Of a DNA stretch of 33,016 nucleotides, positions 23,857-23,961 are shown in pieces. The DNA comes from Escherichia coli (GTDB lineage: Bacteria > Pseudomonadota > Gammaproteobacteria > Enterobacterales > Enterobacteriaceae), in NCBI RefSeq assembly GCF_003334385.1, contig NZ_QOWN01000050.1; one strand, 5' to 3'. A program made the translations under genes and the position numbers. Each line of letters starts with the position of its first letter. Positions within the stretch are counted from its first letter, which is position 1. Below the pieces are notes generated by a model that saw only the letters and a program-made list of their open reading frames with translations, did not search any database and was not told the DNA's origin.

Positions 23857-23961
23857 CTAACGGGCATTGAAGAAGTGAAAGTCGAAGCTATTGCGATGAG
23901 CAAACTTCATAATATGAGTTGTCCGCCTTATATGGGGCATAGTGCGGCTGTTATTTTCCAT
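23857..23961 (-). CDS. speFL: speFL leader peptide, 34 aa
   Basis: The minus strand encodes MENNSRTMPHIRRTTHIMKFAHRNSFDFHFFNAR, matching the published SpeFL arrest peptide; about 260 bp upstream of speF. Confidence 0.8.
   Translation of the reverse strand: MENNSRTMPHIRRTTHIMKFAHRNSFDFHFFNAR

Follow-up and report, generated by a model that had tools for sequence, protein, structure and literature searches.

A complete SpeFL ornithine-sensing leader ORF upstream of speF in an Escherichia coli strain with a disrupted potE

Previous studies have described speFL as a short leader gene upstream of speF in Escherichia coli, and its ornithine-dependent ribosome stalling, the Rho dependence of the system and the structure of the stalled complex have all been reported (10.1101/604074; Herrero del Valle et al., published 2020). 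[quoted passage not shown] Residues 1–13 form the sensor domain, and the HIRRXXH motif (residues 10–16) together with Pro9 lines the ornithine pocket; the effector domain contains F20, F26, F28, F30 and F31, and N32 displaces U2585 of the ribosome (10.1101/604074). The published model also includes a rut site that overlaps speFL, and a pause hairpin that contains the stop codon has been described for both E. coli and Salmonella (10.1101/604074). For the Salmonella leader, Rho termination, sequestration of the speF ribosome-binding site and an effect of arginine have been reported, the inhibitory long-range helix was validated by compensatory mutations, the Shine-Dalgarno sequence of the leader ORF (orf34) is AGGA, and attenuation was attributed to Rho, an intrinsic terminator not having been found there (PMC6386406).

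The window, by which we mean the whole stretch of 33,016 nucleotides that was analysed, is a piece of E. coli chromosome that runs from asnB to ybfA. A 4.7-kb query around speFL has matches in 5,421 of 5,426 complete E. coli genomes, and the order of annotated features at the homologous place is potE, speF, "leader peptide SpeFL", kdpE. The initial annotation of this DNA had placed a 34-codon ORF in the speF leader at 23857–23961, and these coordinates prove to be exact, with the UAG included; it had given no strand. The reverse complement of this interval translates to MENNSRTMPHIRRTTHIMKFAHRNSFDFHFFNAR followed by a stop, and translation of the plus strand gives an unremarkable open frame in which the SpeFL peptide is absent, so speFL lies on the minus strand. 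The ORF ends 257 nt upstream of the speF ATG (23599) and begins 233 nt downstream of the kdpE stop (24195). On the same strand it is followed by an ORF of 732 aa (21401..23599) and then by ORFs of 213 aa (20763..21404) and 224 aa (20084..20758) that lie in different frames, and it is preceded by an ORF of 225 aa (24195..24872). The features of the region are collected in Table 1.

Table 1 Positions of the features of the speFL-speF-potE region within the window
Feature	Position	Strand	Remarks
speFL	23857..23961	minus	34 codons plus UAG; sensor domain residues 1–13, HIRRXXH 10–16, effector domain 14–34
Shine-Dalgarno sequence AGGAAAGG	23970..23977	minus	Read from the sequence; separated from the speFL AUG by 8 nt (UAAAUUAA)
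Candidate -10 hexamer TAGAAT of the speFL-speF-potE promoter	23999..24004	minus	Weak candidate, from the haplotype-conserved block TGGATAGAATA
Hairpin GCCCGUUAGUC-UACC-GACUAAGGGC	23835..23865	minus	Holds the last two speFL codons and UAG; predicted RNA polymerase pause hairpin
C-rich, G-poor stretch, C/G = 2.0	23846..23920	minus	Sliding C/G count; 3′ half of speFL and stop
speFL-speF spacer, 257 nt	23600..23856	minus	Length equal to the published 257 nt; further hairpins inside
speF, inducible ornithine decarboxylase, 732 aa	21401..23599	minus	Identical to WP_000040192.1 of ML35; no internal stop
potE pseudogene	20084..21404	minus	Alignment to ML35, K-12 and SCU-104

The list of ORFs holds 74 of at least 30 aa in the surrounding 7 kb, among them speFL (34 aa, ATG start), so an open frame of this length is without significance in itself and it is the identity of the peptide that matters. 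A search of all PDB chains gave a single match, the "SpeFL" chain of 6TBV/6TC3, which is identical at 34 of 34 residues (E 7.6e-20), and Pfam family PF10940, "Leader peptide SpeFL", matches residues 8–33 (E 4.6e-5). RefSeq annotates "leader peptide SpeFL" at the homologous place in strains ML35, SCU-104 and K-12; the ML35 CDS (WP_211180488.1) coincides with the ORF in the window, and the K-12 MG1655 counterpart is b4803, speFL. An hmmscan of the peptide against NCBIfam matched zero families, which we read as the lack of a suitable HMM in this library and not as a mark against the identification. Thus the database match that the initial annotation had left to be sought was found twice over, in the PDB and in Pfam, and its assignment of the ORF to SpeFL holds.

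The residues on which SpeFL function depends are all in place. The sensor motif reads P9-H10-I11-R12-R13-T14-T15-H16, the effector domain has F20, F26, F28, F30 and F31 and ends in N32-A33-R34 before the UAG, and every residue found by mutagenesis to be required (H10, I11, R12, R13, H16, F26, F28, F30 and F31) is retained. Codons 12 and 13 are AGG and CGG, consecutive rare arginine codons. A phmmer scan of 1.84 billion cluster representatives found 13 relatives, and in a family alignment of 11 of these 13 with the window peptide M1, H10, I11, R13, H16, R23 and F26 show no variation, while R12, F20, F28 and F31 are almost invariant.

That the gene is intact, as had been claimed, is borne out by its complete frame and by the surrounding DNA, which shows no nucleotide difference from K-12 MG1655 from 22385 to 25137, a segment that includes the whole kdpE-speF intergenic region. 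The published toeprinting and reporter assays used K-12-derived DNA, with templates from DH5alpha, which has a K-12 background (10.1101/604074). We therefore regard it as virtually certain that the ORF is E. coli speFL, the ornithine-sensing arrest peptide that controls speF-potE, unchanged from the experimentally characterised allele. As an element it is already known: it has been published, solved by cryo-EM, entered in Pfam and annotated in RefSeq and K-12, and we add nothing new to it.

The leader outside the ORF also has the expected parts. A ribosome-binding site, which the initial annotation had likewise left to be looked for, is present 8 nt before the speFL AUG (AGGAAAGG, Table 1). 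The candidate -10 hexamer would put the start of transcription about 30 nt before the speFL AUG, a weak indication that may be compared with the Salmonella AUG at +32; a sigma-70 consensus scan of 23500–24300 returned no promoter at its threshold. The minus-strand RNA of 23780–23900 (121 nt), which includes the predicted pause hairpin, folds with -36.1 kcal/mol (z -4.5 against shuffles), and the hairpin agrees with the one in the published model. The C/G ratio peaks in the 3′ half of speFL. This is in keeping with the published rut site, composition alone being a weak indicator of such sites. Over the longer interval 23570–23992 (minus strand) the minimum free energy fold has -114.5 kcal/mol (z -4.1) and contains a helix, GACUUUCACUUCUUC / GAGAUGAAAAAUGUC, in which speFL codons 27–31 are predicted to pair with the region around the speF Shine-Dalgarno sequence and AUG. 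By analogy with Salmonella, this predicted pairing may be the E. coli counterpart of the inhibitory helix. An Rfam scan of the leader gave no family and only a chance snoRNA match (E 0.28).

We also note a terminator-like hairpin followed by a U run, AGCGGGGUAACUUUGCU-UUUUUU, in the spacer about 75 nt before the speF AUG (23672–23688, minus strand), which is largely kept in the second leader haplotype described next.

E. coli carries two forms of this leader. Of 5,045 matching genomes, about 1,700 share at least 99% identity with the window over 23780–23990 and about 3,339 share 80–90%. Strain 2009C-4687 is an example of the second haplotype (WP_001312672.1, peptide MENNNRLMPHIRRTTHIMKFAHRNSFDFHFFNAR), and its leader is about 83% identical to the window in DNA, that is, about 17% diverged. 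The two haplotypes have the same architecture; in the second, the spacer is longer by about 51 nt and the sequence that precedes the promoter is unrelated. The ORFs differ at 15 of 105 nt, 11 of the differences being synonymous third-position changes spread over codons 4–34, and the only amino-acid changes are S5N and T7L, so that residues 8–34 are identical. With so few of the changes reaching the protein, purifying selection on the SpeFL peptide is clear. The RNA shows a parallel case, as the pairing of a downstream hairpin is kept in the second haplotype by a double change (ACAGGC/GCCUGU to ACAGGU/ACCUGU).

The same comparison bears on the opposite strand, where an ORF of 85 aa (23722..23979, plus) overlaps speFL. 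This ORF is longer than speFL and is called as a gene in the Logan assembly described below (contig 2426..2683), so one might suppose that it is the real gene and the 34-codon ORF incidental. Its product has no Pfam match, the corresponding plus-strand region of the second haplotype has stops in all three frames, and it is the minus-strand peptide that is conserved there, with 11 of 15 changes synonymous, and that is seen in the cryo-EM structure. We consider it exceedingly improbable that the antisense frame is the gene; the stops in the second haplotype and the conservation of the minus-strand peptide refute it, and its call is spurious and hides speFL. There is thus a practical value in checking annotations at this locus, since filters on ORF length miss speFL and gene callers pick the spurious 85-aa antisense ORF.

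The divergence between the two haplotypes is concentrated in the leader, as judged across the region of window positions 23600–24194 and its flanking genes: about 17% in the leader, 6% in speF (94% identity) and 3% in kdpE (97% identity). This pattern suggests an old recombinational replacement of the leader combined with strong constraint on the peptide. The sequence between kdpE and the promoter is essentially unrelated in the two haplotypes, and we find the depth of this split more surprising than speFL itself. In one further genome, NZ_AP022177.1 (strain WP7-S17-ESBL-04), the kdpE-speF intergenic query matches in two pieces over 1,372 bp with an IS1A transposase under the match, which implies that an IS1 element has inserted somewhere between kdpE and speF; the switch may be naturally disrupted in that genome.

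Downstream of the leader, the claim that potE is broken in this strain stands, and both speFL and speF are intact. The start of potE overlaps the speF stop (AUGA), and two lesions lie within the gene. The first is the insertion of one A at 20824 (AA to AAA, plus strand; GAAGAACC becomes GAAGAAACC), which shifts the frame after codon 193, and the second is a C>T change at 20801 that turns TGG into TGA at Trp201 of the native frame. Translation is predicted to give 193 native residues followed by 20 frameshifted ones (213 aa). There is no uninterrupted 439-aa PotE frame, and 13 stops are found when the sequence between the native potE start and end coordinates is read in one frame. Because the lesions lie downstream of speF, they cannot be polar on it.

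Both lesions are absent from all 5,426 complete E. coli genomes; the closest match to a 151-nt probe has 98.7% identity (two differences). The exact 213-aa product is encoded on a 7,924-nt contig of Logan assembly ERR1948963, which is 100% identical to the window and is reported for 6 samples. We considered whether the lesions might be sequencing or assembly errors and rejected this, given that there are two independent lesions and that an independent assembly is 100% identical over 7.9 kb; the identity of that public assembly indicates that they belong to a real lineage. The broken potE, a feature of modest interest, is the only peculiarity of the strain in this operon, and it amounts to a small natural experiment on SpeF in the absence of PotE.

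We note in passing that a 145-nt copy of the 3′ end of kdpE (24195–24339), 90% identical, lies downstream of potE at about 19859–20003. Annotations list it as a partial winged-helix pseudogene, named ybfI in K-12, and the duplication is a known relic.

Relative to ML35 and SCU-104, its nearest complete genomes, the window has seven private changes, at 12214, 12704, 20801, 20824, 26025, 28012 and 32050, a density of about 2 per 10 kb. They comprise five transitions and two indels of one base each within runs of A (AA>AAA in potE and A7>A6 upstream of kdpF), a spectrum that looks like that of a mismatch-repair-deficient mutator lineage. The potE pair is closely spaced, at a distance of only 23 nt.

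Other observations concern the kdp locus. A C>T change at 28012 creates a nonsense codon, W36*, in kdpC; all 5,395 matching complete E. coli genomes lack it (best identity 99.3% over 151 nt). The kdpD start is ATA in place of ATG (27551, which is also kdpC codon 190), and this is common to SCU-104, where kdpD is still annotated. The Kdp potassium pump is probably inactive in the strain from which the window comes.

These changes raise the question of whether the sensor is intact merely because it has had no time to decay, the speFL-speF-potE operon being obsolete here and drifting towards loss. Three of the seven private changes inactivate genes (two in potE and kdpC W36*), and a rate of about 2e-4 private changes per base predicts only about 0.02 hits in the 105 nt of speFL and about 0.5 in speF; an intact speFL is thus not evidence of continuing selection on the switch, and an intact speF is equally uninformative. 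Against this, no hit has fallen in speF (2.2 kb) or in the 595-nt intergenic region and two have fallen in potE (1.3 kb), which is weakly compatible with selection on speF, the numbers being too small for a test. We regard obsolescence as a possible reading, on balance a doubtful one, and it leaves the identity of the element undisputed, as it disputes only its present relevance. The opposite idea would be that it was adaptive to lose potE and keep speFL-speF, a mutator-like lineage having turned an acid-stress exchange module into an ornithine-gated source of cytoplasmic putrescine. The pathoadaptive loss of the cad system in Shigella is an analogous case, and by that analogy such an origin is conceivable; we think it very improbable.

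With the leader identical to that of K-12, the published work indicates how the switch would be expected to operate in this strain. The operon mRNA would start a few tens of nt upstream of speFL, and ribosomes would translate speFL. At low ornithine the ribosome would terminate at the UAG and depart, exposing rut over the 3′ part of speFL, and Rho would then terminate transcription just past the pause hairpin that holds the stop codon; pairing between the speF ribosome-binding site and the 3′ part of speFL would also persist. When ornithine is abundant, the nascent peptide would capture a single L-ornithine molecule between its HIRRXXH loop and 23S rRNA, the Phe-rich C-terminal domain would compact, U2585 would be displaced and release of the peptide by RF1 would be blocked. 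The stalled ribosome and those queued behind it would cover rut and open the inhibitory helix, so that speF would be transcribed and translated. Stalling and antitermination should work here as well, provided that cytoplasmic ornithine is high enough and that the conditions which usually activate the promoter prevail. Induction of the operon would then give SpeF and a truncated, presumably inactive fragment of PotE. The acid-stress exchange cycle, in which ornithine enters and putrescine leaves, would be lost, and conversion of ornithine to putrescine in the cytoplasm should remain possible under SpeFL control.

It had also been proposed initially that speF induction is probably normal in this strain and that ornithine decarboxylation may be uncoupled from putrescine export. 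Both statements appear weaker than they were made. PotE is an ornithine/putrescine antiporter that carries external ornithine in and internal putrescine out (10.1101/604074; PMC6307189). As PotE is also a route of ornithine import, its loss removes an entry route for the inducer and a positive loop along with the acid-stress exchange cycle, and it may lower the supply of inducer. The untranslated 3′ half of potE could also change the stability of the operon mRNA.

Induction might therefore be impaired in this strain, with external ornithine reaching the ribosome less efficiently and SpeFL stalling less often. PotE being the operon's own ornithine importer speaks for such an effect, as does the finding that sensing by SpeFL is kinetically controlled and requires high free ornithine (10.1101/604074; PMC6307189 for the transport role of PotE). 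On the other side, added ornithine restored the growth of an avian pathogenic E. coli (APEC) potE deletion mutant, so ornithine can enter without PotE (PMC6307189). The literature search found no study that measured how speF is induced when potE is mutated. Ornithine is also produced inside E. coli by arginine biosynthesis, and LAO/ArgT-HisQMP is an uptake system for it. We think it rather unlikely, on these grounds, that induction is impaired, and retain the reading that the switch should respond when cytoplasmic ornithine is sufficient. As to putrescine, the APEC potE mutant showed no intracellular accumulation of it and a potE mutant of K-12 had normal growth in minimal medium (PMC6307189), and other putrescine exporters, for example SapBCDF, have been described.

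The closest known system is SpeFL of K-12 (b4803, 6TBV/6TC3), with which the locus shares the peptide (34/34), the intergenic DNA, the 257-nt spacer, the UAG stop, the rare arginine codons and the flanking kdpE and speF genes. The element itself shows no difference from that of K-12; the difference lies downstream, where potE of the window strain has a frameshift and a nonsense codon. The orf34 leader of Salmonella Typhimurium (Ben-Zvi et al. 2019, PMC6386406) is similar in being a 34-codon ORF in the speF leader with consecutive AGG-CGG codons and an AGGA-type Shine-Dalgarno sequence. There, Rho-dependent termination occurs just past the ORF and a long-range helix sequesters the speF ribosome-binding site, and an analogous helix is predicted here. 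It differs in its UGA stop and its longer leader, with the speF AUG at +516; in the window the speFL AUG lies 362 nt upstream of the speF AUG (23961 versus 23599), a distance not directly comparable with the Salmonella + coordinate. A further layer of control that involves arginine and RNase G has been demonstrated in Salmonella only. Finally, TnaC, the tryptophan-responsive leader peptide of tnaCAB, follows the same logic, in that a ligand-dependent block of release-factor action at the leader stop codon masks rut and prevents Rho termination (10.1101/604074), whereas in its peptide, its ligand and the site at which that ligand is bound in the exit tunnel it is unrelated to SpeFL.
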